64,000 nucleotides of DNA from Terriglobales bacterium (GCA_049521375.1 JBEKOW010000001.1:2850-66849); one strand, 5' to 3'; shown: positions 18,721-64,000, numbered from the stretch's first letter. Notes: generated by a model not told the origin, from the sequence alone. Numbers and translations are program-made.

Positions 18721-18876
18721 CTAGTCGCCCGAGGGCAGAAGTTCGTCGTCCCAGTGATTGCCAGCCAGTGACGGGTAGTACAGCGCCGACGACGCGGTCA
18801 TGCCGAGGTTGTGTCCTAATTCAAAGATTGGGTCGTCCGTGTTTCCGTTATGTCGGTTGGAAGTCGAAGTCGTCAT
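18721..18876 (-). CDS. Candidate 51-aa small protein sharing its C-terminal octapeptide with ICL
   Basis: The ATG at 18874-18876 has GGGGA 7 nt upstream. The ORF ends 'DDELLPSGD*' and the adjacent ICL ends 'SDELIPSGD*'. No family was recognised, so coding status is unproven. Confidence 0.3.
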   Translation of the reverse strand: MTTSTSNRHNGNTDDPIFELGHNLGMTASSALYYPSLAGNHWDDELLPSGD

Positions 18877-19065
18877 CGTTTTATCCCCACTTTTCCCCAC
18901 CCACAAATTTGCTTCCGGACCCTTGCCGTCCTCATGCAGTAGACCGCGGAATCCGCCCGGACACAAATCGCTCCGTCCGCCGTGTCCTACTAGGTCAATT
19001 TGACCTAGTCCGGCGAGAGTAGAGGCCAGCGGCGCTTATCGTATTGTCAGGGGTAAACTGATACC

Positions 19066-20640
19066 ATGAACACGCAGACTTTAGCGGAAACCTCAGCGCA
19101 AAATGCCATTCTCACTCCGGAAGCGCATGCCTTTCTGTCCAAACTCTCCGCGAAATTCGAGCCGCGCCGCCAGGAGTTGCTGGCCCGCCGCCGCACCATC
19201 CAGCAAAAGCTCGATGCCGGCTGGTTGCCAGACTTTTTGCCGGAGACCGAGCACATCCGCAGGAGCGTGTGGAAGGTAGCCCCTATTCCCAAAGATCTGC
19301 TCGATCGCCGCGTGGAAATTACCGGCCCGGTCGATCGCAAGATGATCATCAATGCGCTCAACTCAGGCGCCAATGTATTCATGGCCGATTTCGAGGACTC
19401 GAATTCCCCGACCTGGACGAACAACGTCGAGGGCCAGCACAATCTGCGCGACGCCATCCGCGGCACCATCGCCTACGAGAGTCCGGAAGGGAAGCGCTAT
19501 AAACTTGGCGAGAATCTGGCCACGCTGCTGGTGCGCCCGCGCGGCTGGCATCTTGACGAGAAACACTTTCCCATCGATGGACGGCCCATCTCCGGCTCGC
19601 TCTTCGATTTCGGATTATTCTTCTTCCACAACGCACACGCCTTGATCAAGAAGGGAACCGGTCCGTACTTTTATCTGCCGAAATTGGAGAACCACCTCGA
19701 AGCGCGCCTCTGGAACGATGTGTTCAATTTCGCGCAGGACGAACTGGGCATTCCCCGCGGCACCATCCGCGCCACCGTTCTGATCGAAACTATTCTCGCC
19801 GCCTTTGAGATGGATGAAATCCTCTATGAACTCCGCGACCACTCGTCCGGCCTCAACTGCGGCCGCTGGGATTACATCTTCAGCTACATCAAGAAATTCC
19901 AGGCGCACCCCGAGTTCATGTTGCCCGACCGCTCGCTGGTCACCATGGAATGCCATTTCCTGAGTTCCTACGTCGAGTTGCTCATCCAAACCTGCCACCG
20001 GCGCGGCATTCACGCGATGGGCGGGATGGCAGCCCAGATTCCTATTCGCAACGATACTGCCGCCAATGAACAAGCGCTCGACAAAGTGCGGGCCGATAAA
20101 CTGCGCGAAGTAAAAGCCGGACACGATGGCACCTGGGTCGCCCATCCTGGACTGGTTCCGGTGGCAAAGGAAATCTTCGATAAGTACATGCCCGAGCCCA
20201 ACCAGATCGCGAAACATCGCAAGGGTCATCCTGTCACGGCAAAGGACCTGCTCGAGGTTCCCAAGGGCGAGATCACGGAAAAGGGCTTGCGCTGGAATAT
20301 CGATGTTGGCTTGCAATATCTATGGTCGTGGCTGCGTTCGTCGGGGTGCGTGCCGATCTACAACCTGATGGAAGACGCCGCGACCGCCGAGATTAGCCGC
20401 GCCCAGGTATGGCAATGGGTGCGATTCGGTGCGCGCATGAGCGACGGCAAGGCCGTTACCGCCGATCTGGTCAAACAGATCGTCCGGGAGCGGGTCTCTG
20501 AGTTGCAGGCGGGCGACGCACAGAGCAAATCTGCGAATGACGGCCGGTTGCAGCAGGCCGGGCAACTTCTGGAAACTTTGATGACCGGCAAGGAATTTCC
20601 CGAGTTCCTGACCCTTGCCAGTTACGATTTATTAGACTAG
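19066..20640 (+). CDS. aceB: Malate synthase A
   Basis: 524 aa. Typical blocks are present: '[30 protein letters not shown]', '[11 protein letters not shown]' and '[13 protein letters not shown]'. Confidence 0.9.
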
Positions 20641-50645: not shown

Positions 50646-51428
50646 TCAGAACGACAGCCGTTTGAAAATCCCTTCCGGAATGTGTTCCACCGCGCTCATC
50701 ACATATCTCCAGATCTTCGGAGCGTAGACCACGTCCGGCGCCCGCCGCTCCAAAGCGCGCACAATGTCGCGTCCCACCACCTCAGGATCGGCAAAGCGCC
50801 CCGCGCCAGCAAGATGGTCGGTCATTGGAGTCTGCACCGGTCCCGGCTTAATAGTAATCACCGCAACGCCGGCGGCATGTAACCGGCTCCGCAGCCCTTG
50901 CAGAAAAAGCGCGAGCGCTCCCTTTGCGGACCCGTAAACGTAGTTCGACCGCCGTCCCCGATCCCCGGCGACCGAAGTAATCGCGGCAATACAGCCCATG
51001 CGACGCCGCTCAAGCTCAGCCGCGAATAGCGTAAGAATCGCCGATGCGCTAACGAAATTAATATTGAGTTCATCTAGCAGAGTCTCGACCGACGCTTCCG
51101 ACTGCTTCTGCTCATGCAACGACCCATAGGCCAGCAGCACCGTGTCGTAATCCGAAAACGATCGTCGGACAAAATCCACAATTGCAGCATGTTGTGGAGT
51201 GGAAGCCAGGTCGGCCTCCCATATCAGCACCTGCTTTGCCCCGCGCGCCAGCAGGTCGGACTGCACCGCCTCCAGTCGCTCAGATGACCGTGCCACCAGC
51301 AGCAACTCGCATCCCCGCCGCGCCAGTTGCCGCTGTACCTCCATCGCAATGCCGGATGTAGCTCCAAGCACAACGACCTTCCTCAAAGCTGCGACCCGAG
51401 AACCCGCCGAGCCCATCGTCATGGTCAT
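50646..51428 (-). CDS. Short-chain dehydrogenase, DprE2-like (polyprenyl-phospho-2-keto-pentofuranose reductase candidate)
   Basis: The SDR motifs 'LGATSGIA' and 'YGSAK' are present in a ~260-aa protein. Its ATG (51426-51428) overlaps the upstream stop as ATGA, and it is third in the operon after the UbiA-like and DprE1-like genes. Confidence 0.65.
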   Translation of the reverse strand: MTMTMGSAGSRVAALRKVVVLGATSGIAMEVQRQLARRGCELLLVARSSERLEAVQSDLLARGAKQVLIWEADLASTPQHAAIVDFVRRSFSDYDTVLLAYGSLHEQKQSEASVETLLDELNINFVSASAILTLFAAELERRRMGCIAAITSVAGDRGRRSNYVYGSAKGALALFLQGLRSRLHAAGVAVITIKPGPVQTPMTDHLAGAGRFADPEVVGRDIVRALERRAPDVVYAPKIWRYVMSAVEHIPEGIFKRLSF

Positions 51429-52795
51429 TGTGGCCCCGTGACGCGCCGCCAGAACGACGACGACATTTTTGGATCGATATAAGGAACGAAACTCCGCCAC
51501 CGCGGGAATGAAGACTCGAACATTGCGCTGCTCATGCGAGCGTCCTTGGCGGGGTAAAGCGCGCCGCCGCTCTGCCACACGACATCATCCAGCGAACGCA
51601 GCAGTTCCAAGGTTCGTTCCCCGCGCATCGCAAAATCAAGCGCCAGAGTCAGCCCGGGACGCGGGAATGACAGCATTCCGGCCGCCGGAGCGGTGCCGAA
51701 TTGCTTGAGCACGCCGAGAAAAGAACCCATCCCCGAGTGCGCGATGCGATCCAGCAGCTCTTCGAGCGCCGCGAGGTTCGCCGACGGCAGCACGCACTGG
51801 TATTGCAGAAACCCCTGCTTGCCGTAAAGCAGGTTCCACTGCCGCAGCGAGTCGAGTGGATAGAAAAACGAATCATAGCCCACCCGCGTCGTGCCTCGCT
51901 TGGCTGCATGCGCGTAATAATAGGCGGTGTTGAATGCCTTCACCGTGCCGCGGTTCAGCACCCACGCGGGCAAAGCAAAGGGAAGTTTCGGACCCAGTTT
52001 CGGACGCAGCTTTCCGCCCGCTTCGGCCGCATGATTTCCGCGGAAAAAAATCCCCCGCGCCTTCTTTCCCGCAAAACAGTCTAACCACGCCACCGTGTAC
52101 TCGAACCGCCCATCGCTCTCGCCGCTGAGATCCAGAAATCCAGCTAGAGATTCAAAGGGGACAAGTTCGCAATCGATCCACGGTCCAGCCACCGGTCGAA
52201 GTTGAATATCGGCCCACGCAATAACGCCCGTCAGCCCAAGCCCGCCAATCGTGGCGCGAAACATCTCTGCATTCTCGCTCGGACTGCAGAACACCGGCCC
52301 TTCGCCCGACCGGTGCAGCCCCAGTTGGCGTACATGAGCCCCGAACGTCCCCGCGCAATGATGATTCTTGCCATGCACATCGTTCGCAATCGCTCCCCCC
52401 ACCGTCACAAACTTCGTGCCCGGAGTCACCGGAACGAACCAGCCCTTGGGAAGAAACACTTCGATGATCTCGGCGAAACTGGCTCCGCTTTCGCACCGCA
52501 GCACGCCCGTCGCTTCGTCAAAGCCAAGTATGCGGTTAAGCCGCCGGCAGTCCACCAGCGCCCGCTGCGCGTTCAGGCACGAGTCGCCATAGCTGCGGCC
52601 CATCCCGTAAGGCAGTAATTCTCCAGCCGACGCGCCTTTGACAATCGCCGGAATCTGATCATCCCACGCCGGTTTGTACACGTGGCTGTGTATGGTCTTC
52701 GGATAGCGTCCCCATGAGAGGTAGCTGCCCGTGCGCATTTCGGCGCGCTCGCCCGCTGCCGGCTCTTTCCGCAACGCTGTGGATTGCGCAGGCAT
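51425..52795 (-). CDS. FAD-dependent oxidase, DprE1-like (polyprenyl-phospho-ribose 2'-oxidase candidate)
   Basis: 456 aa. Blocks align by hand with my recollection of M. tuberculosis DprE1: 'GMGRSYGD', 'VTVGGAIANDVHGKNHH', 'GGLGLTGVI', 'GKQGFLQYQCVLP', 'LSFPRPG..L.LDF' and 'GGALYPAKDAR'. Confidence 0.75.
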   Translation of the reverse strand: MPAQSTALRKEPAAGERAEMRTGSYLSWGRYPKTIHSHVYKPAWDDQIPAIVKGASAGELLPYGMGRSYGDSCLNAQRALVDCRRLNRILGFDEATGVLRCESGASFAEIIEVFLPKGWFVPVTPGTKFVTVGGAIANDVHGKNHHCAGTFGAHVRQLGLHRSGEGPVFCSPSENAEMFRATIGGLGLTGVIAWADIQLRPVAGPWIDCELVPFESLAGFLDLSGESDGRFEYTVAWLDCFAGKKARGIFFRGNHAAEAGGKLRPKLGPKLPFALPAWVLNRGTVKAFNTAYYYAHAAKRGTTRVGYDSFFYPLDSLRQWNLLYGKQGFLQYQCVLPSANLAALEELLDRIAHSGMGSFLGVLKQFGTAPAAGMLSFPRPGLTLALDFAMRGERTLELLRSLDDVVWQSGGALYPAKDARMSSAMFESSFPRWRSFVPYIDPKMSSSFWRRVTGPQ

Positions 52796-52796
52796 A

Positions 52797-54257
52797 TTAA
52801 AAGTTCACGCTTATCATGCTTCCGGCGATCACCGCCGCCGAGGCCAGTGCCGCCCCATAGCTGACCCGGTCGCGAATCGCGAGCGTTACCGGATCCTCAT
52901 TCAACTCGCCGCGATGCGCCTGTAGCCAGGTCCGGCTCAGCCAGTAGAGAACAATCGGGCAAAGCAAAAGCAGCCATTCGGGCGACGGGTAAAGCACCCG
53001 CACTTCCTGGCTATGCACGTACAGACTGAGAATGACCACCGCCGAAAAGCTGCTCCCAACTCCAAGGGCGAGCAGAAGTTCGCGATCTGCCACTCGATAC
53101 CCGCGCCCCGACTTTCCGGACGCGATCAGGTCATTTGCATGGAGCAATTCCGAATAGCGCTTCGCCATTGCGAGGCTGAGAAAGAAAAACATCGCGAACG
53201 CCAGAAACCACTGTGACAGCGGCGTCGCCGAAATCATTGCGCCCGCGAGAATTCGGAAACTGTAAAAGCTGGAGAGCACAAAAACATCAAGCAGCGCAAT
53301 CTTCTTCAAATGGAGCGAGTACCAGGTCGTGAGCGCCGCATATCCCAGCAGCACCAGCCCAAATTGCGCGTCGAGCAGCAGGCCCAACCCGATCGCCGAG
53401 CATAGCAGCCCGAACGCTGCGAACAGGCCCTCGGGAATCGAAATATTCCCCGCCGCAAATGGCCGCTCTTTTTTCCACGGATGCTCGCGATCCGAATGCA
53501 GGTCAAACAGGTCGTTGAGAATATAAAGCCCCGAAGCGCACAGCCCGTAGAGCCCAAACCCCGCCAGCGTGCGGACCACAGGCTCGATCGCCAGATTGTG
53601 CGAAAGCGCCAGCGGCAGAAATAGCAGAAGGTTTTTTGCCCAGTGGTGGCCGCGCAGGGCATCGATCCACGTTCGCAAAGAAGTCCGCGGCTCGGCGATC
53701 CTGGCCTTGAGCGTCGTAACTTCCGCCGCCTGCAATGCGCGCGCCGCGCTTCCAACCACGTACGCTGCCCGGGACTGCCGCCACACCTCCAGGTCGGCGG
53801 TCGAATCTCCAATGTAATCAAAGCCCGTTGAGGCGAAATGCTGCACCAAAAACGCCGCCTTCTCCGCTCCCTTCAGATTCGTTTCGCCGTCGCTGGCGTG
53901 CACTTCGTCGAATAGTCCCAAATGGTCGGAGATCGACCTGGCCAGCTTGTGATCCGCCGCCGTAACCAGCGCAACCCGGCGTCCGGCGAGCCTTTCCTGA
54001 CGCAGAAGATCGACCACTTCCTGACGATACGGAAGGTGCGTGGCATCAAGCTGGATGCGGCCCGCAAGCTGCTTCTTGAGAAACGCGCGTCCCCGAAGCA
54101 GCCAGAACGGCAGCAGAAATAGAACAGCAGGATGCGTTTTGAGCAGGACGAGGATGCACTCCCACAGCAGATTTCCCCGGATCAGTGTGCCGTCGAGGTC
54201 GACGCACAACACCGGCGATGTTTCCTTCGCGGCTTGGGTTCCGGCCACAGACCCCAT
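52797..54257 (-). CDS. Fusion protein: N-terminal HAD-superfamily phosphatase plus C-terminal UbiA-family polyprenyl-phosphate phosphoribosyltransferase-like domain
   Basis: HAD motif I 'CVDLDGTL', 'LVTAA' and 'GDSTADL' lie in the first ~190 aa. A polytopic UbiA domain follows, with 'YILNDLFDLHSDREHPWKKERPFAAG' (NDxxDxxxD, similar to Rv3806c-type enzymes). Its stop lies 1 nt from the next start. Confidence 0.7.
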   Translation of the reverse strand: MGSVAGTQAAKETSPVLCVDLDGTLIRGNLLWECILVLLKTHPAVLFLLPFWLLRGRAFLKKQLAGRIQLDATHLPYRQEVVDLLRQERLAGRRVALVTAADHKLARSISDHLGLFDEVHASDGETNLKGAEKAAFLVQHFASTGFDYIGDSTADLEVWRQSRAAYVVGSAARALQAAEVTTLKARIAEPRTSLRTWIDALRGHHWAKNLLLFLPLALSHNLAIEPVVRTLAGFGLYGLCASGLYILNDLFDLHSDREHPWKKERPFAAGNISIPEGLFAAFGLLCSAIGLGLLLDAQFGLVLLGYAALTTWYSLHLKKIALLDVFVLSSFYSFRILAGAMISATPLSQWFLAFAMFFFLSLAMAKRYSELLHANDLIASGKSGRGYRVADRELLLALGVGSSFSAVVILSLYVHSQEVRVLYPSPEWLLLLCPIVLYWLSRTWLQAHRGELNEDPVTLAIRDRVSYGAALASAAVIAGSMISVNF

Positions 54258-54352
54258 GGGAATATCGTCGCAAACGGCACGGCGAAACGGGCAGACAAGT
54301 CACACACGTAGGTAACCTGGGTAACATGCGCGCAGAGCGGCGGAACGTTAGT

Positions 54353-56386
54353 ATGAGCCAGTCCGCACAGTTGAATCTGCGACCCGCGAGGGAAGCGAAA
54401 GGCGTCTGCCAGGTGGAATCGTTAGCCACAAAAATGGATCGAGAACCCAGCGCCGCCGAGGTGCTCGCCAAGTATCTGCGCCGCCCCAATGTTTTCGTGT
54501 CCCTCCTGGCGTTGACCACATTGGTCGTCTATAGCGGCTCCTTGTCTTTCGATTTTGTCTGGGACGACTGGCCTCAGATCGTCAATAATCCGATCATTCG
54601 CAGCTGGAGCAACCTTCCCCGCGCTTTTGGAAGCGACCTCTGGTACCACATGGCGCGGCATCAGGTGTATTACCGCCCGCTCTTTGTCGTCTGGTCCATG
54701 CTGAACTACGCGCTCTTCGGATTGCGGCCCTGGGGTTGGCATCTGGGCGCGCTGCTGGCGCATGTTGGCGCCGCGCTCTCCGTATTCTGGCTGGCCCGAA
54801 AACTGGGAATCGAATACTGGACATCCGCTCTTGCCGCGCTGATCTTTGCCTTGCACCCCATCCACATCGAGGCCGTCTCCTGGATTTCCGCCGCTTCTGA
54901 CTCGATGGTCACCATGTCGTTCGCGCTCGCCTTTGTCGCCTTCCTCACTGCCCGGAACCCCCGCGGTCACAACAAAGTAGCCTGTTGGATCGCATCGTTA
55001 TTCTTGCTGGCCTGCGCGCTTCTAACGAAAGAGATGGCGGTAAGCTTCGCAGCGCTCGTAGCAATTTATGCCTGGCTGAATCCCGCGGAAGGGAAGATGA
55101 CTCCCACACGCAGAGTTCTATGGGCCATTGCCGAGTCAACGCCCTTTGTCTTGGTTACCCTTGCGTACGTCCTGCTACGTAAACACGCTCTGCCCCACGC
55201 TGCCGGGCAGTTTGATCCCAACCACGGATTGGTTGATCTGGCCCGTACTTTGCCGCTCGTGATCAGCTTCTATCTCTGGAAGCTCCTGGTTCCCGTGGGA
55301 CTAACCGGCCTCTATTACACGCCCTATGTCACCCACGCAATCCTGACTCAACTTATAGCACCCGTCTTATTGCTGCTCGCAGCCCTCGCCGGATTGTGGT
55401 ATTGGAATCGCCGGGAAGGGAACTCGACGGTTGCTTTTGCCGGGCTCTGGCTGCTGGTTGGGCTCGCCCCGGCGCTCTACCTCCGCAATTTCGGCAATGG
55501 CGATTTCGTCAGGGATCGCTATATCTGCCTGCCTTCGGTCGGCTTCGCAATCCTGTTGGCGATGGCGTGCCAGCGCTTGCCATCCATTAAGCAATGGAGT
55601 TCGCAGACGGTCAGAGTCGCCGCCGTTCTTGCGCTGGGTCTTGTCTATGTGGGCGCCTCGCTCTCGCAGCAAGTTTACTGGGCGAACGATCTGCTCCTCT
55701 GGAGCCGGGGTCACGCCCTCTATCCCGACAACCCCTACGCCTCGGTCGGTCTTGCCGCCGAATACAGCAAGCGCGGCGCGCACGACCGCGCGATTGAACT
55801 GGCAGAGTCGGCGGTCCGCCTGCATCCCGATCTGAGCTACGCTCCGCTGGCGCTGGCGGAAACCTACATTCGAGCCGGAAGGTTCGACCAGGGCCGCTTC
55901 TGGCTGCAAAGGGTGCCGCCCGAGTACGTGAAATCGGAGATGGGGACTGCAGCCTTCGCCGGACTCTACGGCCGCATGGGCGACTATGATAAGGCTCTGG
56001 CCTACTGCTCCGAGATTCTGCAGAAGGAGCCCGATCTCTATTCAGCCCTTTATAACTGCGGGAACATTCACCTGATGGATGGCCAATATCGGGAAGCGGA
56101 ACGATTGTTATCGCGTGCGGTCGCACTCGCTCCCGAAGAGGCGGGACCGAAACATTTTCTGGGGCGCACCCTGCTCAAAGAAGGCCGCAATCAGGAAGCC
56201 CAAACTTATCTTCAGCAAGCCGTCGCCCTCGATCCCAAGGTCTGGGATTACCACTATTGGCTGGGCGAGTCGCTCGAAAAAAGTGGAGATCGGGCCACCG
56301 CGCGCGCCGAGTACGAGACCGCTCTGCGCTTGAATCAGGACAGCACCGAAACCAAACTCCGACTGACCGCTCTGGAGGCAAAATGA
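54353..56386 (+). CDS. GT-C-fold membrane glycosyltransferase, TMTC/PMT_2 (DUF1736)-like, with a C-terminal TPR domain
   Basis: The first-loop motif 'SLSFDFVWDDWPQIVNNPIIR' is present, with about 10 TM helices and then TPR repeats ('AIELAESAVRLHPD', 'ALAYCSEILQKEPD', 'AERLLSRAVALAPE', 'AQTYLQQAVALDPK', 'ARAEYETALRLNQD'). The start is uncertain, with alternatives at 54326 and 54434. Confidence 0.7.
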   Translation: MSQSAQLNLRPAREAKGVCQVESLATKMDREPSAAEVLAKYLRRPNVFVSLLALTTLVVYSGSLSFDFVWDDWPQIVNNPIIRSWSNLPRAFGSDLWYHMARHQVYYRPLFVVWSMLNYALFGLRPWGWHLGALLAHVGAALSVFWLARKLGIEYWTSALAALIFALHPIHIEAVSWISAASDSMVTMSFALAFVAFLTARNPRGHNKVACWIASLFLLACALLTKEMAVSFAALVAIYAWLNPAEGKMTPTRRVLWAIAESTPFVLVTLAYVLLRKHALPHAAGQFDPNHGLVDLARTLPLVISFYLWKLLVPVGLTGLYYTPYVTHAILTQLIAPVLLLLAALAGLWYWNRREGNSTVAFAGLWLLVGLAPALYLRNFGNGDFVRDRYICLPSVGFAILLAMACQRLPSIKQWSSQTVRVAAVLALGLVYVGASLSQQVYWANDLLLWSRGHALYPDNPYASVGLAAEYSKRGAHDRAIELAESAVRLHPDLSYAPLALAETYIRAGRFDQGRFWLQRVPPEYVKSEMGTAAFAGLYGRMGDYDKALAYCSEILQKEPDLYSALYNCGNIHLMDGQYREAERLLSRAVALAPEEAGPKHFLGRTLLKEGRNQEAQTYLQQAVALDPKVWDYHYWLGESLEKSGDRATARAEYETALRLNQDSTETKLRLTALEAK

Positions 56387-58338
56387 GCCGCGACATCGAG
56401 AAGCCAGCCGCGACAAGCGAGCCCACGACGACTTCCGGCCGCGAAGTGCTGAAGGTTGAAATAAAAGTTCGCGAGTTGGAATCAACAGAATCGGACGCCG
56501 TCCAGAGTGAAGCTGGCGTCTCTTCGACGAGTCATGACCAAGTTCTTCGTTGGGTAGTCCTCGCCGCGGTTCTGTTGATCGCTGGCACTTACGTCGGCCT
56601 TCGCATCGGCAACGGCTGGGTTCCGGCCGATGATGGAACCCTCGCCCAGAGTGCCCTGCGCGTCCTGCAAGGCCAGCTTCCCCATCGCGACTACGCTGAG
56701 ATCTACACTGGCGGTCTCAGCATGATCCATGCCCTAGCCTTCCGCACCCTGGGCGTGAACCTGATGTCGCTACGAATTTGCGTGTTCCTGTTTTTTCTGG
56801 CCTGGATTCCCGCCGTCTACTACATCGCGCTGCGCTTCACCTCCGCCCTCGGCGCTGGCCTCGTCACGCTCCTCGCGGTCTCCTGGAGCTTCCCGAATTA
56901 TCCCGCCGCCATGCCTTCCTGGTACAACCTGTTCTTCGCCACCTTCGGCGCGGCGGCTCTCCTGCGCTACCTCGAAGTAAGAACCAGAAAGTGGCTGTTA
57001 GTAGCAGGACTGTGCGGCGGACTCTCCCTGGCAATCAAAGTTATCGGAGCCTATTTCATTGCCGGCGCGCTCCTGTTTCTGGCTTTTCTGGAACAAAGCG
57101 ACCACGCGTCGAGCGAGCCCGCGAAAACGAGCTGGGGATATCGCGCCTTCAGCCTGGGCGCCTTGTCCGCCTTCCTCGGGACGCTGCTCTACGTGCTCCA
57201 TGCTCGTCTGACCATGGCAGAGTTCTACCATTTTGTCCTCCCTTCTACGGCCATGGTCTCCCTCATCTTATTCGGCGACCATAAGGTGTCGGCGCCAACC
57301 ACACAACGTTTCGCAGCGCTCCTGCGATTCGTCACTCCATTTGGCCTCGGCGTTCTAACTCCCCTCGCGATGTTGCTGGCGCCCTATGCGCTATCCGGGT
57401 CTCTCCGCAGCTTCGCCTCCGGCATGGCCTCGAGCGTCGCCGGGCACGTCGCGGATCTTGCCGTCATCCGTCCCGCCCCGCTTCAATACGTCGCTTTCGT
57501 GCTGCCGCTCCTGGCCATTCTTGCCGCCGCCATGTATTGGGATAAGTTTCAAGGCAAGGCCGTGGGCGCGGCTTTCGGCGTGGGAGCGATCGTGATCGCC
57601 GTGCGCGCCACGCAGTCGATGCGCATTCTGTCGGGAGTGTGGTTTTCGGCAGTAATGCTGACCCCGGTCGTGGTTTGTCTGGGCGTCGTCGTAGTAGCCG
57701 TGGCCGCCAGAAGCCGTGACCGCAGCCTTCTTCAGCGGCAACAGGTCATGCTGCTAACTTCTCTCGCGGCGACCTGCACCCTCGTCCAGTATCCCTTCGC
57801 CGCTCCCGTATATCTCTGCTATGCGTTGCCGCTGACCCTGCTCGCTCTTGTGTCCATCGTCTCCACCAGCAAGAAGCAGCCCGGAACTTATGTCCTGGTT
57901 TCGGTGGCCGTCCTTTACACGGCGTTCGGAGTCGTCTCGCTCATTCCCATGCAGGTCGCGGAGTTGACGCACGAAGTCGGCCACATGGACAAGTTGCGAC
58001 TACCCCGCGGCGGCGTGCGCATCGAAAACGCTCGCGTCTTCGAGGAACTGAGCCGCTTCCTGCAGCAGCATTCGCCGAACGGTCTGCTTTACGCCGGAAA
58101 CGATTGCCCCGAGGTTTACTTTCTCTCCGGCCTGAAAAACATCACCCGCGACGATGCAGGCGCCAAGCCAGATGAAGTATTGCGCGCCCTCCAATCCACG
58201 GATGTAAAAGTGGTAGTGATCAACGAAGCTCCTTTTTTCCCCGTCGGCCGCATGAACTCGGAAGTAAGAGCCGAGGTGGAGAAAAAGTTCCCCAACCATG
58301 GTCAAGCCGGAATCTTCCAGGTATTTTGGAGAGAGTAA
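56383..58338 (+). CDS. Polytopic membrane protein, possible second GT-C (ArnT/PMT-like) glycosyltransferase
   Basis: The ATG at 56383 overlaps the upstream stop (ATGA) and is preceded by GGAGG. The protein has 12 or more TM helices, an early extracytoplasmic loop 'GWVPADDGTLAQSAL...HRDY', and a soluble ~110-aa C-terminal domain. The family assignment is tentative. Confidence 0.45.
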   Translation: MSRDIEKPAATSEPTTTSGREVLKVEIKVRELESTESDAVQSEAGVSSTSHDQVLRWVVLAAVLLIAGTYVGLRIGNGWVPADDGTLAQSALRVLQGQLPHRDYAEIYTGGLSMIHALAFRTLGVNLMSLRICVFLFFLAWIPAVYYIALRFTSALGAGLVTLLAVSWSFPNYPAAMPSWYNLFFATFGAAALLRYLEVRTRKWLLVAGLCGGLSLAIKVIGAYFIAGALLFLAFLEQSDHASSEPAKTSWGYRAFSLGALSAFLGTLLYVLHARLTMAEFYHFVLPSTAMVSLILFGDHKVSAPTTQRFAALLRFVTPFGLGVLTPLAMLLAPYALSGSLRSFASGMASSVAGHVADLAVIRPAPLQYVAFVLPLLAILAAAMYWDKFQGKAVGAAFGVGAIVIAVRATQSMRILSGVWFSAVMLTPVVVCLGVVVVAVAARSRDRSLLQRQQVMLLTSLAATCTLVQYPFAAPVYLCYALPLTLLALVSIVSTSKKQPGTYVLVSVAVLYTAFGVVSLIPMQVAELTHEVGHMDKLRLPRGGVRIENARVFEELSRFLQQHSPNGLLYAGNDCPEVYFLSGLKNITRDDAGAKPDEVLRALQSTDVKVVVINEAPFFPVGRMNSEVRAEVEKKFPNHGQAGIFQVFWRE

Positions 58339-58578: not shown

Positions 58579-59502
58579 CTAGCTCTTGCGCGCCCACAAG
58601 CGCAGGCACGTGGGCTGCCCGGTGAGGAGCCGAGCGCCAAACTGCAAGGGATGCAATAGCACTCCCGCCGCAAACAACACTGAGTTATACCCGCACCCGA
58701 TCAGGTTTCGCAGCGACCTCCCTATCTTCGGCATTTCGCACCCACCTGAGTGCTCCGGAACCAATCCCGCGTCCAACGCCGCCTGCTTCAATGCGGCTTT
58801 GGAAAAATGAATGGGATGATAAGGAACGTAGTAGCCGTCCCAATATTTGCCGAAAACGTTCCGTAGCGGGGCCTCCAGGTTGGGCACTTCAACCAGCAAA
58901 ACGCCGCCCGGAGACATCAGGTCGCTTATGCCTTTCAGGAAATCCACAGGATGATACGTGTGCTCGAGAACGTGGCGGCAGAGAACAAGGTCAAAGGGAG
59001 TGTGCGCCGTCAGTCCGGCATAGTCCGAGTAATGAATGTCTTCCCCTTCGATCATGGGCGGAGCTGCCTCGTGGTAGTCCGTTGCCCATACCGCGCTTTC
59101 CGGAAACGTCCTCCGCAGGGAAAGCGCGAAAGCCCCGTTGCCGCAGGCGTAATCGAGTATCTTTTTTACCGGCGAGCCAAGCCGCGCGTTGCCCACCATC
59201 GTTCGCACGTCGCGATCCGCAACCGCATCCTTGAGCCTCGCGGCCATCGAAGAGTTATCCCCCTGAAAATCCGAGGATGTCCGGTCTTCATACAATAAGT
59301 GACTGTCTGACTCGGACGGCACCGGATCCGTGATTCCGATCCCGCACCCGCCGCAGCGGTAGACCGAAAACAGTTCTCTCTCGAACGGGCCAGCGCCATA
59401 CGTGACAGCGTCGAGTTCCCATGAGCCGCGGCTGGTCTTGCAGAAAGGACAGTTCTGCAAATGAATCAATTCCGGAAGCGGTCGCCCCGCCGCGGACTCC
59501 AT
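58579..59502 (-). CDS. Class I SAM-dependent methyltransferase with an N-terminal Cys4 zinc ribbon
   Basis: 'CPFC...CGGC' is followed by SAM motif I 'ILDYACGNGAF' and 'DLVLCRHVLEH'. The start was chosen downstream of the GT2 stop and is uncertain. Confidence 0.75.
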   Translation of the reverse strand: MESAAGRPLPELIHLQNCPFCKTSRGSWELDAVTYGAGPFERELFSVYRCGGCGIGITDPVPSESDSHLLYEDRTSSDFQGDNSSMAARLKDAVADRDVRTMVGNARLGSPVKKILDYACGNGAFALSLRRTFPESAVWATDYHEAAPPMIEGEDIHYSDYAGLTAHTPFDLVLCRHVLEHTYHPVDFLKGISDLMSPGGVLLVEVPNLEAPLRNVFGKYWDGYYVPYHPIHFSKAALKQAALDAGLVPEHSGGCEMPKIGRSLRNLIGCGYNSVLFAAGVLLHPLQFGARLLTGQPTCLRLWARKS

Positions 59503-59572
59503 CCTGCGGCGATCAGCGAGTCCGGGTTGTTCAAGTATCTCCACCTGTTCTCTGTCCCCGACGGCCGTTCTC

Positions 59573-60586
59573 TTAGTTGCCGGAAGTCGCGCCCGACGCC
59601 AGTTCGGCCCGTGGCATCGGCGCTCCCATCTCGTGCTCAAAGTTCAGTTTCTCGCGCTCCACCACCAGCGGACGGTTATGCACCTGCGTGTGGATGTTCC
59701 CGATGTATTCGCCCAGTATGCCCATAAACAAAAGTTGCAGCGAGCCTAGAAAAAACATGCCGATGGCAATGGGCGCGATGCCCACCGTAAACTGCCGCCA
59801 GAAAAGCAGCTTGTATCCGAAGTAAACAGTTCCGCCCAGCAGCGATAAGAGTGACCCGGCAAAGCCCGCAAAAGTCACCAGCCGCAGCGGCACCTTCGAG
59901 AGCTTCGTGATCCCCAGCATCGCGAGATCGTACAGCGTGTAAAAGTTGTTCTTGGATTTCCCGCTCTTGCGCCGCTGCTGCTCGTAAACAACCTCGGCGT
60001 GCGGCAGTCCGATCTCCGCGATCATGCCCCGAAAATATGGATAAGGGTCGCCAAACTGGCGGACCAGGTCGATTACCTTGCGATCGTAAAGCCCGAACCC
60101 AGTGAAGTTCTCGTAAGTCTCAATATCGTCGGCCAGGTGGTTCACCAGGCGGTAAAACAGCTTCCGCAGCAGGAACATGGGCGCGGCCTCGCGGCTCGTA
60201 TGCTTGGCCGCAATCACGATCGGAAAGCCTTGTTCCCATTGCTCAATCAACTGCTCCAGCACTTCCGGAGGATCCTGCAAGTCCGACATCAGAACGATAA
60301 TGGCGTCGCCCCTCGCCTGAAACATGGCGTGCATGGGAGACCGGATGTGCCCGAAGTTTCGCGCGTTGCGGATCACCTTCACGTTCGCGTCGTCGGCCGC
60401 AATCTCGCGCAGCACCGCAAAGGTGGAGTCGTGCGACGCGTTATCGATAAAAATATGCTCGTAGCGATAGCGCCCGAGCTTCAGCATCAGGCTGCGCACC
60501 CGCTCATAAACTTCGCGCACGTTGCCTTCTTCGTTGAAGCACGGCGTCACTACGCTGATGGTCTTCACTTCTACAAGACCTTTCAC
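59573..60586 (-). CDS. Family-2 glycosyltransferase, polyprenyl-phosphate sugar transferase type (GtrB/ArnC/DPM1-like)
   Basis: 'ISVVTPCFNEEGN', 'IFIDNASHDST' and 'IIVLMSDLQDPPE' are present, plus two C-terminal TM helices. The GTG start overlaps the upstream stop (GTGA). Confidence 0.85.
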   Translation of the reverse strand: MKGLVEVKTISVVTPCFNEEGNVREVYERVRSLMLKLGRYRYEHIFIDNASHDSTFAVLREIAADDANVKVIRNARNFGHIRSPMHAMFQARGDAIIVLMSDLQDPPEVLEQLIEQWEQGFPIVIAAKHTSREAAPMFLLRKLFYRLVNHLADDIETYENFTGFGLYDRKVIDLVRQFGDPYPYFRGMIAEIGLPHAEVVYEQQRRKSGKSKNNFYTLYDLAMLGITKLSKVPLRLVTFAGFAGSLLSLLGGTVYFGYKLLFWRQFTVGIAPIAIGMFFLGSLQLLFMGILGEYIGNIHTQVHNRPLVVEREKLNFEHEMGAPMPRAELASGATSGN

Positions 60587-61710
60587 TTGCCGCTGCCGGC
60601 CTTCGCCGACAGAACTGCGGGTTGCGGCGGCAGCCCGCGATGGTAGATAAGTTCCGTGAGCGACGGTATGTTGGCGTACGGGCTATCGATGGCGTCAATC
60701 ATGATTGCCTGGTGCGCCGGAACCGCCTTCCGGATCACTTCTCCCCGCATCAACTCCCGGCAGGAAATCTGTCCCTGCTGCAGCGGAATGGCGAGATAGA
60801 CGTCCGCGTCCTGCAGGACGTGCCCCACTGGCAGATCGCGCTTGGCATACACGCCGCGCACCAGCGAGTCCAGGTAGGAAATTTCTTTTTGCGGCGGAAG
60901 CCGCTTCTGCGTCCCCGGAGCCCCGCACATGCGCTTGGCGCGATGGAACGCCTTGAACCACGTGTCGATCTGTTCCGGCACCGAGCAGTAGGGCGAGACC
61001 GTCATCCCTTCCGTCTGAATGTCGACGTGCCGTTCGAACGTTCGCGCTCCCTTGGCATACGCCAACAGCATGGAAGAAGTCCAGTCTTTGTACTCGTGCG
61101 TCGAGAACCCGATTGTGTGTGTCGGGTAGCGGTTACGCAGAAAGTCGATCTGGTTCAGCTCGATGTCGCAATCCTCCGACGGGTAGAGCGACACGCAATG
61201 ATTGATGGCCAGCGGTATATGTCGGTTATCGAAGAATGTTACTAAGTCGTCGATATCTTTGAGGGAAGAGCCTCCCGTCGAAACGATCGCCGGTTTCTTG
61301 GTCTTCGCAATAGTCTCGATCAGGATCCAGTCATTGCAGTCGGAGCTTGCAATTTTCAGAATTGGGATGCCCAGCTTGCAGCAGAAATCGACCGAGCTCT
61401 CGTCAAAAGGCGTGGCCAGCGGGATGCAGCCGGCGTCCCGAATGGCCTGCACCATGGTCACGAAATCCTCAGGCTTCAGGCGCGTGTCGATCGTTTTCTT
61501 GATGTAGCGGATGTCGTCTCGCTGCCGGAAATCCTTGTGAACGAACGTGTCCACGTCGCGGAACTGCAACTTGATGGCCGCGCGAACATTGTTGAAGCGC
61601 ACAACCTGCGCGTAGTTGCTGATGATCTTCAGGCCGCGTTGCAGGTCGCCCAGGTGATTGTTGGCCAGTTCCAGTACAAACAGCTCATCAAATATGTCGT
61701 TGCCAGTCAT
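60583..61710 (-). CDS. NeuB-family PEP-condensing sugar-acid synthase (N-acetylneuraminate-synthase family) with a C-terminal SAF domain
   Basis: 'VLELANNHLGD', 'ATPFDESSVDF', 'LKIASSD', 'AIVSTGG', 'HCVSLYPS', 'IGFSTHE' and 'FERH' line up with NeuB blocks. A SAF-like tail, 'RGVYAKRDLPVGHVL', follows. Confidence 0.75.
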   Translation of the reverse strand: MTGNDIFDELFVLELANNHLGDLQRGLKIISNYAQVVRFNNVRAAIKLQFRDVDTFVHKDFRQRDDIRYIKKTIDTRLKPEDFVTMVQAIRDAGCIPLATPFDESSVDFCCKLGIPILKIASSDCNDWILIETIAKTKKPAIVSTGGSSLKDIDDLVTFFDNRHIPLAINHCVSLYPSEDCDIELNQIDFLRNRYPTHTIGFSTHEYKDWTSSMLLAYAKGARTFERHVDIQTEGMTVSPYCSVPEQIDTWFKAFHRAKRMCGAPGTQKRLPPQKEISYLDSLVRGVYAKRDLPVGHVLQDADVYLAIPLQQGQISCRELMRGEVIRKAVPAHQAIMIDAIDSPYANIPSLTELIYHRGLPPQPAVLSAKAGSGK

Positions 61711-61763
61711 AGTATTAGTCGCCTTGGTACTGTCATCGTCTTGCTGACCTGTCTTTCGCTCGC

Positions 61764-62858
61764 TTACGCGTGCTGTCCAAGAGCGGGAGCTTCTTTTCGT
61801 ATCCCGCGCCTGGCATACCCTTCCGCCGCGGACCATTGGTAGGTGCGGAGAATCGCGTCTCGTAACGGCACCTCAGCATGCAGACCCAGTTCGGTCCGCG
61901 CCCGCACCGTGGATGGCACGTAGCGCTGCGGTTGCGCATCCGGTGCCTGCTTGCCTGCGATCTGCACTCTGACCGCGGGTGGCACTGCCGCCGCCACCTC
62001 GTGCGCCAGCGCCGCAATATTCAGCGCGTCTTCAGAGCCCACGTTATAAGCGCATCCTGCTCGCCCCCTGAAGAGCATCGTCCAGAGCCACACCACCAAG
62101 TCGGACGCGTACAGATACGACCGGAATGGCACCCCGTCGCCCTTCACCTGGATGGTTTCGCCTCGCAGCGCATTCGAGATGAAGTTCCCAATGGCAAAAT
62201 GCGCATCCAGTTGCATGTAGGGACCCACGAATGCAAAGCAGCGCGCCACCGTCGTCTCAAAAGTCGGCGTCGCCGAAACCGCGCATAGCAACTCGGCAGC
62301 GCGTTTTCCTTCCGCATAAGCCGACGCGCGATTCAGGGGATCGGGCCCGCCCGAAAACGATTCGCCGACGTGCGTAAGACCCGACGGCTGCTCTCCATAG
62401 ATTGCCCCCGAACTGACCAGAAGAAATCGCTTAACGGAATGGGCTAGCGAGAACTCAAGCGTTCGCCGTGTACCTCTCATGATCGTGTCAAACATGACGA
62501 GCGGTTCCTCGCGATTCAGTTGTGCGCTGGCCGAGGTCGCCGCATGCATGACATGGGAAAACTGTCCCTCCGGGAACTGTCCATCCCGAATGTCCGCCGC
62601 ATGCAAAGTGATTGCCGGGTCCTCCGCCAGATGCCGCGCCTTTTGCGCCAGCGTTTGCGGATTCCGCGACAGCGCCACCGCATGAGCGTCCAGGTTCAGC
62701 CTCCGGTTCGCCCAGGCAAAGCTCTCCAGCAGCCAGCATCCAAAAAAGCCGGTCGCGCCCGTGATCAGGATGCGTTCCCCCCGCAACTCGCTCCATAGCG
62801 GCTCCGTCCGAGCCAGAATGTTGTCGAGATCTTCAGTGAGTCGGTTCGTCATCGTCAC
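61764..62858 (-). CDS. Extended-SDR NAD-dependent sugar epimerase/dehydratase/reductase
   Basis: The Rossmann motif 'ILITGATGFFG' and the catalytic 'YAEGK' (YxxxK) are present. The specificity cannot be called. Confidence 0.8.
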   Translation of the reverse strand: MTMTNRLTEDLDNILARTEPLWSELRGERILITGATGFFGCWLLESFAWANRRLNLDAHAVALSRNPQTLAQKARHLAEDPAITLHAADIRDGQFPEGQFSHVMHAATSASAQLNREEPLVMFDTIMRGTRRTLEFSLAHSVKRFLLVSSGAIYGEQPSGLTHVGESFSGGPDPLNRASAYAEGKRAAELLCAVSATPTFETTVARCFAFVGPYMQLDAHFAIGNFISNALRGETIQVKGDGVPFRSYLYASDLVVWLWTMLFRGRAGCAYNVGSEDALNIAALAHEVAAAVPPAVRVQIAGKQAPDAQPQRYVPSTVRARTELGLHAEVPLRDAILRTYQWSAAEGYARRGIRKEAPALGQHA

Positions 62859-62870
62859 CCATTTGCAAAC

Positions 62871-64000
62871 TTAGGCTCCCCGCGCTACGCTCTTGCGCAT
62901 CTCGTGGAACGTCTGCGCCACGTAATCGATCATCGGCTCGCTGATGCCGGGGTAGAGCCCGATCCAGAACACCTGATTCATCACAAAGTCGGTCTTCGAC
63001 AAGTTGCCGATCACGCGCCGTTGAATTTCTCGGTACGCGGGCTGGCGCAGCAGGTTTCCGCCAAACAAAAGCCGCGTAGCGATCTTGCGCGATTCCAGAA
63101 ACTGTACAACCCGGTTGCGAGTGAGGGGCGCATCGGGACGCACGGCGAGAGGAAAACCAAACCAGCTGGGATTGGAAAACGGCGTGGCTTCAGGTAACAC
63201 GAAGATGTCGTCGAGATCCTTGAGCGCCGCATGAAGCCTGCTGAAATTGTCGCGCCGCGCCGCCATGAACGAGGGCAGCTTTTTCAGTTGTGCGACCCCG
63301 ACGGCGGCCTGCATGTCGGTCGCTTTAAGGTTGTAGCCGATGTGGCTGTAAGTGTATTTATGGTCGTATCCCGCCGGTAAGTCGCCGAGCTTCCATTCGA
63401 ACCTGCAGCCACAAGTGTTCGACTTCCCCGGATCGCACCAACAATCCCGTCCCCAGTCGCGAAACGACTCCACCAGCTTCTTGAGCGCCGGAGACTGCGT
63501 CAGCACGCATCCGCCCTCGCCCATCGTGATATGGTGCGCCGGATAAAAACTGGTAGTGGCCAGATGCCCGAACGTCCCTACCGGTCGCCCTCTGTAAGTC
63601 GACCCCACCGCGTCACAGCAATCTTCAATTACCCAGAGATTATGTTGATTGGCAAATGCCATCACCGCATCAATGTCAAACGGATTGCCCAGCGTGTGCG
63701 CCAGCACGACCGCTCGCGTGCGCTCCGAAAAGGCAGACTCGAGCTGCGCGACATCGACGTCATACGTAGGCACCTGAACGTCGACAAATACCGGCACCAG
63801 CCCGTTCTGAATGATCGGGTTCACGGTAGTCGGAAATCCCGCCGCCACCGTGATCACCTCGTCGCCCGCGCGCAATCGCCGCTCTCCGAGCGACGGAGAG
63901 GTCAGACACGAAAGCGCAACCAGGTTGGCGGACGATCCCGAATTGACCAGCGACGCGCAGCGCACACCCATAAACGCGGCAAAGTCGCGCTCGAACTCCG
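62871..64000 (-). CDS. E1-type PMP-dependent sugar 3-dehydrase (RfbH/DdhC-like, DegT family), 5'-truncated by the window edge
   Basis: '[16 protein letters not shown]' has His (codon at 63534-63536) where DegT aminotransferases carry the Schiff-base Lys. '[14 protein letters not shown]' gives the C-x-C-x7-C pattern that I recall for the E1 [2Fe-2S] site, and '[22 protein letters not shown]' is also present. The frame stays open to position 64000. Confidence 0.8.

Follow-up and report, generated by a model that had tools for sequence, protein, structure and literature searches.

In ORF15 (AWU66546.1) of Citrobacter youngae O1, an N-terminal HAD domain, termed phosphoribose phosphatase (PRP), is joined to a UbiA polyprenyl-phosphoribose synthase domain at the C terminus (Kelly et al., 2024, PNAS, PMC11127046). 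Membranes containing ORF15 convert PRPP and farnesyl-P into farnesyl-P-ribofuranose, as demonstrated by MS and NMR. Upon replacement of the HAD nucleophile (D18A), farnesyl-P-ribose-5-P builds up, although incompletely, as some dephosphorylated product remains, and the replacements N247A, D248A, D251A, and D255A abolish or cripple the transfer (PMC11127046). These findings are restated in a commentary (PMC11194591). A homolog from P. syringae carries its PRP domain at the C terminus and not at the N terminus (PMC11127046). Together with a flippase and a GT-C glycosyltransferase such a synthase forms a widespread “three-component system,” and the Citrobacter systems transfer Ribf or Xylf, not Araf. 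Loci for Araf-containing glycans carry homologs of DprE1 and DprE2, whereas a different epimerase, ORF13, is found for Xylf (PMC11127046). The mycobacterial phosphatase Rv3807c is unrelated to the HAD phosphatases and, like the phosphatase of Pseudomonas, is assigned to a different structural family (PMC11127046). In the rhizobial noeCNHOP arabinosylation operon of Rhizobium sp. IRBG74, noeN has been proposed as a separate phosphatase gene (PMC5080398).

Here we describe a fusion gene with the domain architecture of ORF15 in a 64-kb stretch of DNA from a Terriglobales bacterium, referred to as the window. The gene very probably encodes a bifunctional polyprenyl-phosphoribose synthase, as part of a proposed pathway to an Araf donor that would be used by GT-C glycosyltransferases. 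That a HAD domain can stand in for the PAP2 enzyme is not a novel idea, as NCBIfam already has a curated family for the fusion and enzymes of this type have been assayed and published.

Organization of the locus

The fusion gene (Table 1) is a single uninterrupted ORF of 486 codons. As stated in the preliminary description, a HAD domain is followed by a UbiA domain within this one ORF, and both exceed the Pfam gathering scores, with PF12710 at residues 20–157 (E 7.9e-10) and PF01040 at residues 216–453 (E 8e-21). Furthermore, the protein matches the NCBIfam model NF006088 (PRK08238, “UbiA family prenyltransferase”) with 584.8 bits at a cut-off of 351, residues 8–478 aligning to profile positions 5–477 of 482, and the genome search gave the same outcome. 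NF006088 covers the HAD as well as the UbiA half and is matched end to end; the fused architecture is therefore the curated family itself. However, NF006088 is an annotation family that was not assayed, and its name gives neither the phosphatase domain nor the phosphoribosyltransferase function. Three decaprenyl-phosphate phosphoribosyltransferase models of NCBIfam match the fusion as well, all under their stand-alone cut-offs.

Table 1. Features of the fusion locus, in coordinates of the window.
Feature	Coordinates	Strand	Details
DprE2-like short-chain dehydrogenase/reductase	50646..51428	-	260 aa from ATG at 51428; Pfam adh_short; NCBIfam NF053786
DprE1-like FAD oxidase	51425..52795	-	456 aa; Pfam FAD_binding_4; NCBIfam NF053785
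HAD + UbiA fusion gene	52797..54257	-	very probably bifunctional HAD phosphatase + UbiA-type polyprenyl-phosphate phosphoribosyltransferase; 486 aa; stop TAA 52797-52799
UbiA-fold phosphoribosyltransferase domain (predicted)	52800..53675	-	residues ~195-486; Pfam PF01040, phmmer, Foldseek
HAD domain, phosphoribose-phosphatase-type (predicted)	53688..54257	-	residues 1 to ~190; Pfam PF12710, motif conservation, domain model
GT-C type membrane glycosyltransferase, PMT-like, C-terminal TPR repeats (predicted)	54185..56386	+	divergent from fusion; Pfam PMT PF02366
Second polytopic GT-C-like protein	56383..58338	+	ATGA 56383-56386, GGAGG upstream; weak PMT_2 match

Downstream of the fusion, the ATG of the DprE1-like gene lies 1 nt past the stop codon (TAA-t-ATG, 52799–52793), and the DprE1-like and DprE2-like genes share an ATGA stop/start overlap at 51428–51425, by which the start of the short-chain dehydrogenase/reductase (SDR) gene was set. 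From these two junctions it follows that the fusion, the DprE1-like, and the DprE2-like gene form one tightly coupled unit. On the other side, the PMT-like GT-C, the true start of which is probably downstream of 54185, has its PMT domain at residues 178–330 (E 3.2e-6) and matches to many TPR families at residues ~520–727. The second GT-C-like gene is translationally coupled to the first; its product matches PMT_2 with an E of 0.0025, which is under the cut-off, and gave no match against PDB sequences. Past the GT-C genes there is a separate sugar-modification cluster with a methyltransferase, a GT2, a NeuB-like protein, an epimerase, and a DegT protein.

The preliminary description had also noted that the locus lacks a PAP2 gene. 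This holds for the entire 64-kb window, and the whole 4.97-Mb assembly, which is 88% complete, contains only two PAP2 matches, both on other contigs (C155 and C398), where the open frames are 681 and 725 aa long. With regard to the three-component system, the GT-C part is represented by the PMT-like GT-C and the second GT-C-like protein, which are divergently adjacent to the fusion and co-conserved in Terriglobales loci; GT136 membership is outside this result. A dedicated small flippase was not found in the locus with the GtrA (PF04138) and MatE (PF01554) models, the matches of which are all on other contigs of the 88%-complete assembly.

Conserved features of the two domains

Both motifs named in the preliminary description are found in the HAD domain, DLDGTL as part of VDLDGTL (D20, D22, T24) and GDSTAD at residues 150–155 (G150, D151, D155). 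The complete set comprises motif I (D20-x-D22-x-T24), motif II (T99), motif III (K133), and motif IV (G150-D151-x3-D155). In an alignment of 61 representatives, each at most 51% identical to the query, D20, D22, T/S24, T/S99, and D155 are kept in all 61, K133 and G150 in 60, and D/N151 in 59; the protein of the window has all the catalytic residues. When folded alone, the domain gives an AlphaFold model with a pLDDT of 93.7, showing a HAD Rossmann core and a helical cap. With motifs I–IV and a Rossmann-like core it has the features of a HAD superfamily phosphatase. Against PDB sequences, the HAD half as a single sequence gave chance-level matches only, and a profile of 45 sequences gave only motif-level matches (E 0.05–0.09). 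Neither Foldseek nor VIA-align lists the solved PRP domain of Thermobacillus composti among the 50 best structural matches to the HAD domain, and ORF15 was compared by description; assignment to the PRP subgroup is therefore putative and draws on architecture and context.

The UbiA domain has nine predicted membrane helices, an Asp-rich motif (N248-D249-x2-D252-x3-D256-R257), and a second motif (K366-R367-x2-E370). Among the 61 representatives N248, D249, D252, D256, R257, K366, and R367 are invariant, and E370 is present in at least 90%. The only matches of the UbiA half among PDB sequences are 8j8j and 8j8k, both Rv3806c of Mycobacterium tuberculosis, with a phmmer E of 2.9e-25 to 8j8j over residues 18–297 of 302. 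Foldseek likewise ranks 8j8j and 8j8k ahead of the archaeal UbiA homologs, 8j8j_A being the best with a TM of 0.83 on the target. The nine-helix fold, NDxxDxxxD, the second cytoplasmic-loop motif, and Rv3806c as the nearest relative are the features of a Rv3806c/DPPRS-type UbiA protein. According to the full-length AF2 model (pLDDT 94.5, pTM 0.91), the N-terminal HAD domain, the end of TM2 (N248–D256), and the end of TM6 (K366–E370) would share one membrane face. The order of the helices in the model and the known UbiA topology thus suggest, on topological grounds, that the phosphatase and the transferase sites are on one side.

Distribution of the fused architecture

Of the 8000 candidates scored in a search of 5.8 billion proteins, 4683 clusters reached E ≤1e-10, and all 120 listed homologs, which are 473–523 aa long, contain both Pfam domains. 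An exhaustive HMMER search of representatives at 50% identity found 3452 proteins at E ≤1e-30; among the best 150 of these 3452, nearly all align over residues ~10 to ~475, the proteins being ~480 aa long. In a census across phyla, for which species-representative genomes were scanned with an alignment of eight sequences, at least 592 genomes encode a relative of the fusion. Terriglobales relatives that carry the operon were found there at 72–78% identity. The best 80 loci belong to at least eight phyla and include Acidobacteriota, Alpha-, Beta-, and Gammaproteobacteria, Myxococcota, Planctomycetota, Nitrospirota, Binatia, Oligoflexales, and two lineages of the candidate phyla radiation. In 78 of these 80 loci one tblastn segment covers both domains, and together with the two domains of all listed homologs this shows that the fusion is not an artefact. 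It is also found at ≥80% coverage on 81 plasmids, annotated there as “UbiA family prenyltransferase.” The fullest version, on a plasmid of Cereibacter sphaeroides, comprises the fusion, GtrA, a hypothetical protein, an FAD oxidoreductase, an SDR, and another hypothetical protein. The phage collection contained only one match, which is partial and comprises UbiA alone; the phage-borne system mentioned in PMC11127046 was not recovered in this search.

The neighborhood is conserved to different extents. In 70 of the best 80 loci the gene next to the fusion on its downstream side is a DprE1 homolog, and in 45 of the 80 a DprE2 homolog comes after. The PMT-like GT-C is kept beside the fusion in 23 of the 80, all within the first 33, which are Terriglobales-type relatives, and the second GT-C-like protein in 17, again only within the first 33. 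Taken together, the fusion of HAD and phosphoribosyltransferase is a common bacterial answer to the dephosphorylation step that has been experimentally validated elsewhere, and it is not a new discovery.

Within the Acidobacteriota, a full-length fused gene is present in 24 of 301 sampled genomes, among them 14 of the 22 sampled genomes of the family to which the window organism belongs. About 128 of the 301 have a stand-alone UbiA homolog only, matching profile positions ~185–478, among them the two unpublished genomes of the sample (G152, G049). Fused and stand-alone synthases both occur in Acidobacteriota, and the phylum therefore has at least one other arrangement besides the fusion. DprE1 and DprE2 homologs come after two of the closest stand-alone genes (L093, L094); no HAD match lies within ~5 kb of either synthase, and Pfam annotation of the upstream, synthase, and oxidase genes of L093 revealed no PAP2 or HAD domain. 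The coexistence of both arrangements could help to find out what takes the place of the phosphatase in loci with neither HAD nor PAP2 nearby.

Proposed pathway and alternative readings

The two-step activity proposed for the fusion protein is carried over from the experiments published for ORF15, to which the protein is linked by its architecture, its residue numbering, and a family in common. In the first step, the UbiA-fold domain would move ribose-5-phosphate from PRPP to a polyprenyl phosphate, probably undecaprenyl-P, at the cytoplasmic membrane face. On the same face, the HAD domain would then hydrolyze the 5-phosphate via an aspartyl-phosphate on D20, giving polyprenyl-P-β-D-ribofuranose. 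The co-translated DprE1-like FAD oxidase and DprE2-like reductase may epimerize C2, leading to polyprenyl-P-D-arabinofuranose, and after flipping, this donor might be used by the neighboring GT-C glycosyltransferases, which would attach Araf to an envelope glycan or glycoprotein. Those parts of the pathway that we infer are the identities of the lipid carrier and the acceptor, the formation of Araf as the final sugar, and any direct hand-over between the active sites. On this basis, the Terriglobales bacterium is predicted to produce D-arabinofuranose as a lipid-linked donor and to have an undescribed envelope glycan or glycoprotein with Araf.

The PMT-like GT-C is the likely user of the lipid-linked pentofuranose donor. 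A more far-reaching reading, which we regard as speculative and rather unlikely, is that the conserved Terriglobales cassette of fusion, DprE1/E2-like proteins, TMTC-like GT-C with OGT-type TPR repeats, and second GT-C is a protein O-arabinofuranosylation system, in which the TPR domain would select the protein substrates and the rigidly docked HAD domain (pTM 0.91) would hand over the intermediate from the UbiA cavity to the phosphatase site. If this were true, the Acidobacteriota would have their own, new equivalent of the TfpW-dependent arabinosylation of pilin, and the cassette would not serve polysaccharide side chains.

The assignment of Araf depends on the two genes downstream of the fusion. 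The DprE1-like protein matches NF053785 with 330 bits (E 2e-98), aligning to positions 7–427 of 449, but stays under the equivalog cut-off of 500; the DprE2-like protein matches NF053786 with 170 bits (E 7.3e-50), likewise under the cut-off of 250. Both are clear homologs with full-length coverage, yet they miss the equivalog thresholds of the mycobacterial enzymes, and therefore the C2 epimerization to Araf is something that we infer. These low scores would also fit an enzyme that acts as proposed while the end product is another pentofuranose, a 2-keto intermediate, or a ribofuranose donor that is used directly. Ten of the best 80 fusion loci have no DprE1 homolog in their flanks (up to 8 kb), and the sugars transferred by the Citrobacter systems point in the same direction (PMC11127046). 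However, the order of FAD oxidase and SDR is that of DprE1/E2, nearly the entire DprE1 model is matched, and the published survey ties DprE1/E2 homologs specifically to Araf-glycan loci and ORF13 to Xylf (PMC11127046), so that an end product other than Araf appears improbable.

Concerning the phosphatase step, the preliminary description had proposed that the HAD domain removes the 5-phosphate of the UbiA product, in place of the PAP2 enzyme Rv3807c. By analogy, this is supported by the farnesyl-P-ribose-5-P that accumulates with ORF15 D18A, and the corresponding catalytic residues are intact in the fusion. Alternatively, the HAD domain might act on another phosphate ester, either in recycling polyprenyl diphosphate to polyprenyl phosphate or as a SerB-like phosphoserine phosphatase, while the 5-phosphate is removed by another enzyme, e.g., a PAP2 protein. 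The nearest solved folds of the domain are indeed of the HAD-IB/SerB type, i.e., SerB-type phosphoserine phosphatases and HAD-IB proteins of unknown function. Capped HAD phosphatase folds match with Z 13–16, the nearest being 3fvv_A with Z 16.4 and an rmsd of 3.4 Å over 176 residues, and 7qpl is matched by Foldseek with E 1.1e-7. This likeness reflects the HAD-IB cap type and not the substrate, however, and the identity is 11–20%. The weak NCBIfam match of the HAD half is the generic HAD-SF-IB, and the automatic JGI name reads [quoted passage not shown] Two PAP2 genes do exist elsewhere in the genome, but on other contigs and in the frames of 681 and 725 aa mentioned above. Since ORF15 D18A still yields some dephosphorylated product (PMC11127046), the HAD domain may not be the sole route. 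On the other hand, the HAD domain is fused to the same UbiA subfamily in thousands of clusters and nearly always beside DprE1, and the accumulation of the 5-phosphorylated lipid with ORF15 D18A in vitro directly assigns the substrate (PMC11127046). Action on another ester therefore appears improbable, and removal of the 5-phosphate by the HAD domain remains preferred. A frameshift or assembly artefact is ruled out by the continuous fusion across thousands of clusters and hundreds of genomes, and a degenerate HAD domain by catalytic motifs that are all present and conserved in 59–61 of 61 representatives.

Comparison with known systems

Like ORF15, the fusion protein has a HAD domain followed by a nine-helix UbiA domain, a similar size, and a GT-C partner. 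Compared by the published numbering, D18 of ORF15 corresponds to D20 of the fusion, N247, D248, D251, and D255 to N248, D249, D252, and D256, and R366 and E369 to R367 and E370, respectively; the numbering is within one or two positions throughout, which fits a collinear architecture. The loci differ in what surrounds the synthase. The Citrobacter O1 locus is without DprE1/E2 and adds Ribf, or Xylf with ORF13 in O2, and it contains a small flippase, called MATE-type (ArnEF/EmrE-like) in the paper, as well as a GT136 GT-C with a carbohydrate-binding module. In contrast, the window locus has a PMT-like GT-C with TPR and a second GT-C-like protein, no flippase gene nearby, and an acidobacterial host.

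The pathway logic is the same as in M. tuberculosis, leading from PRPP via polyprenyl-P-ribose-5-P and polyprenyl-P-ribose to polyprenyl-P-Araf. Rv3806c (UbiA/DPPR synthase, 8j8j/8j8k) is the nearest solved UbiA relative and has the same Asp-rich motifs, and DprE1/E2 are adjacent there, as are their homologs in the window. However, Rv3806c is a stand-alone protein of 302 aa that uses decaprenyl phosphate as the lipid, the dephosphorylation is assigned to the separate and unrelated PAP2 enzyme Rv3807c, and the GT-C users are the Emb/Aft arabinosyltransferases. In the Gram-negative bacteria, the rhizobial noeC(N)HOP Nod-factor operons and the pilin pathway of Pseudomonas aeruginosa PA7 also combine a UbiA phosphoribosyltransferase with DprE1/E2 homologs for a lipid-linked D-Araf donor, whereas a gene of its own is described for the phosphatase in these systems, and the D-Araf is attached to Nod factors or pilin. 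What is specific to the window locus is the missing flippase gene nearby, the TPR-bearing PMT-like GT-C partners, and the Terriglobales (Acidobacteriota) host.

GT-C and Sugar-Modification Genes Beside the Fusion

On one side of the gene for the HAD-UbiA fusion lie two genes on the opposite strand, whose products are likely to be the users of the lipid-linked donor. The first one encodes a PMT-like GT-C protein that additionally carries OGT-type TPR repeats and thereby has a TMTC-like architecture, and the second one encodes a polytopic protein with a weak match to PMT_2 only. The first gene overlaps the second in an ATGA at 56383-56386, which couples the two; among the best 80 loci, they are co-conserved with the fusion only in loci of the Terriglobales type. 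A separate gene set for sugar modification follows, comprising a SAM methyltransferase, a GT2, a NeuB-like synthase with a SAF domain, a NAD-dependent epimerase/dehydratase and an aminotransferase of the DegT family.

Features of the window and of related loci
Feature	Position or loci	Strand	Remark
PMT-like GT-C with OGT-type TPR repeats and second polytopic protein	window 54185-58338	+	
Separate sugar-modification gene set	window 58579-63971	-	adjoins the GT-C genes
Acidobacterial stand-alone UbiA locus L093	G073:C1:881500-893500		
Acidobacterial stand-alone UbiA locus L094	G110:C1:5902800-5914800		
Fused homolog on plasmid pACIX904 (L092)	18782-20272		41% identity
Relative in a longer open frame	G184:C101:19847-21265		955 aa
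Fused-gene loci without DprE1 homolog	L035-L037, L055, L059, L062, L075, L084, L088, L090		L075: contig of just 5.4 kb
Loci of the Mesorhizobium type, examples	L038, L056, L057, L067, L069-L072, L076, L077, L081		

Variation Among the Related Loci

In 10 of the best 80 fused-gene loci, among them loci of Saccharibacteria, Peribacteria, Pirellulaceae and Nitrospira, the retrieved flanking sequence of at most 8 kb contains no DprE1 homolog, and these loci may supply ribofuranose or another pentose instead of Araf. In the loci of Mesorhizobium and related rhizobia the fusion is followed by a DprE1 homolog, and no DprE2 homolog was found at E ≤ 1e-8 within fetched flanks of up to 8 kb; the respective reductase may have diverged in sequence, or its gene may lie elsewhere.

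UbiA-only phosphoribosyltransferase genes occur in approximately 128 of the 301 sampled Acidobacteriota genomes. In both L093 and L094 such a stand-alone gene is directly followed by DprE1 and DprE2 homologs, and a tblastn search over roughly 5 kb around it gave no HAD match. According to the Pfam annotation, the upstream genes, the synthase and the oxidase of L093 contain neither a PAP2 nor a HAD domain.

Some relatives are longer than the fusion itself. In P0193 (781 aa, match 304-770) and P0222 (884 aa, match 410-880) the complete HAD-UbiA unit forms the C-terminal part of the protein, and so it does in a further relative, which lies within a far longer open frame. These match positions imply an additional N-terminal domain of 300-400 aa, which would make the long relatives three-part fusions. 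A fused homolog is also located on pACIX904, a mobilizable plasmid of the cultured acidobacterium Granulicella tundricola, where it adjoins a GT8 gene; the gene table of this plasmid, which may be incomplete, lists neither a FAD oxidase nor an SDR.

Comparison With the Cereibacter Cassette

Neither the window nor the whole contig C1 contains a GtrA or MATE flippase gene, and GtrA and MATE matches of the assembly are found on other contigs (C52, C249 and others). In the related plasmid cassette of Cereibacter, a GtrA gene is located right after the fusion gene.
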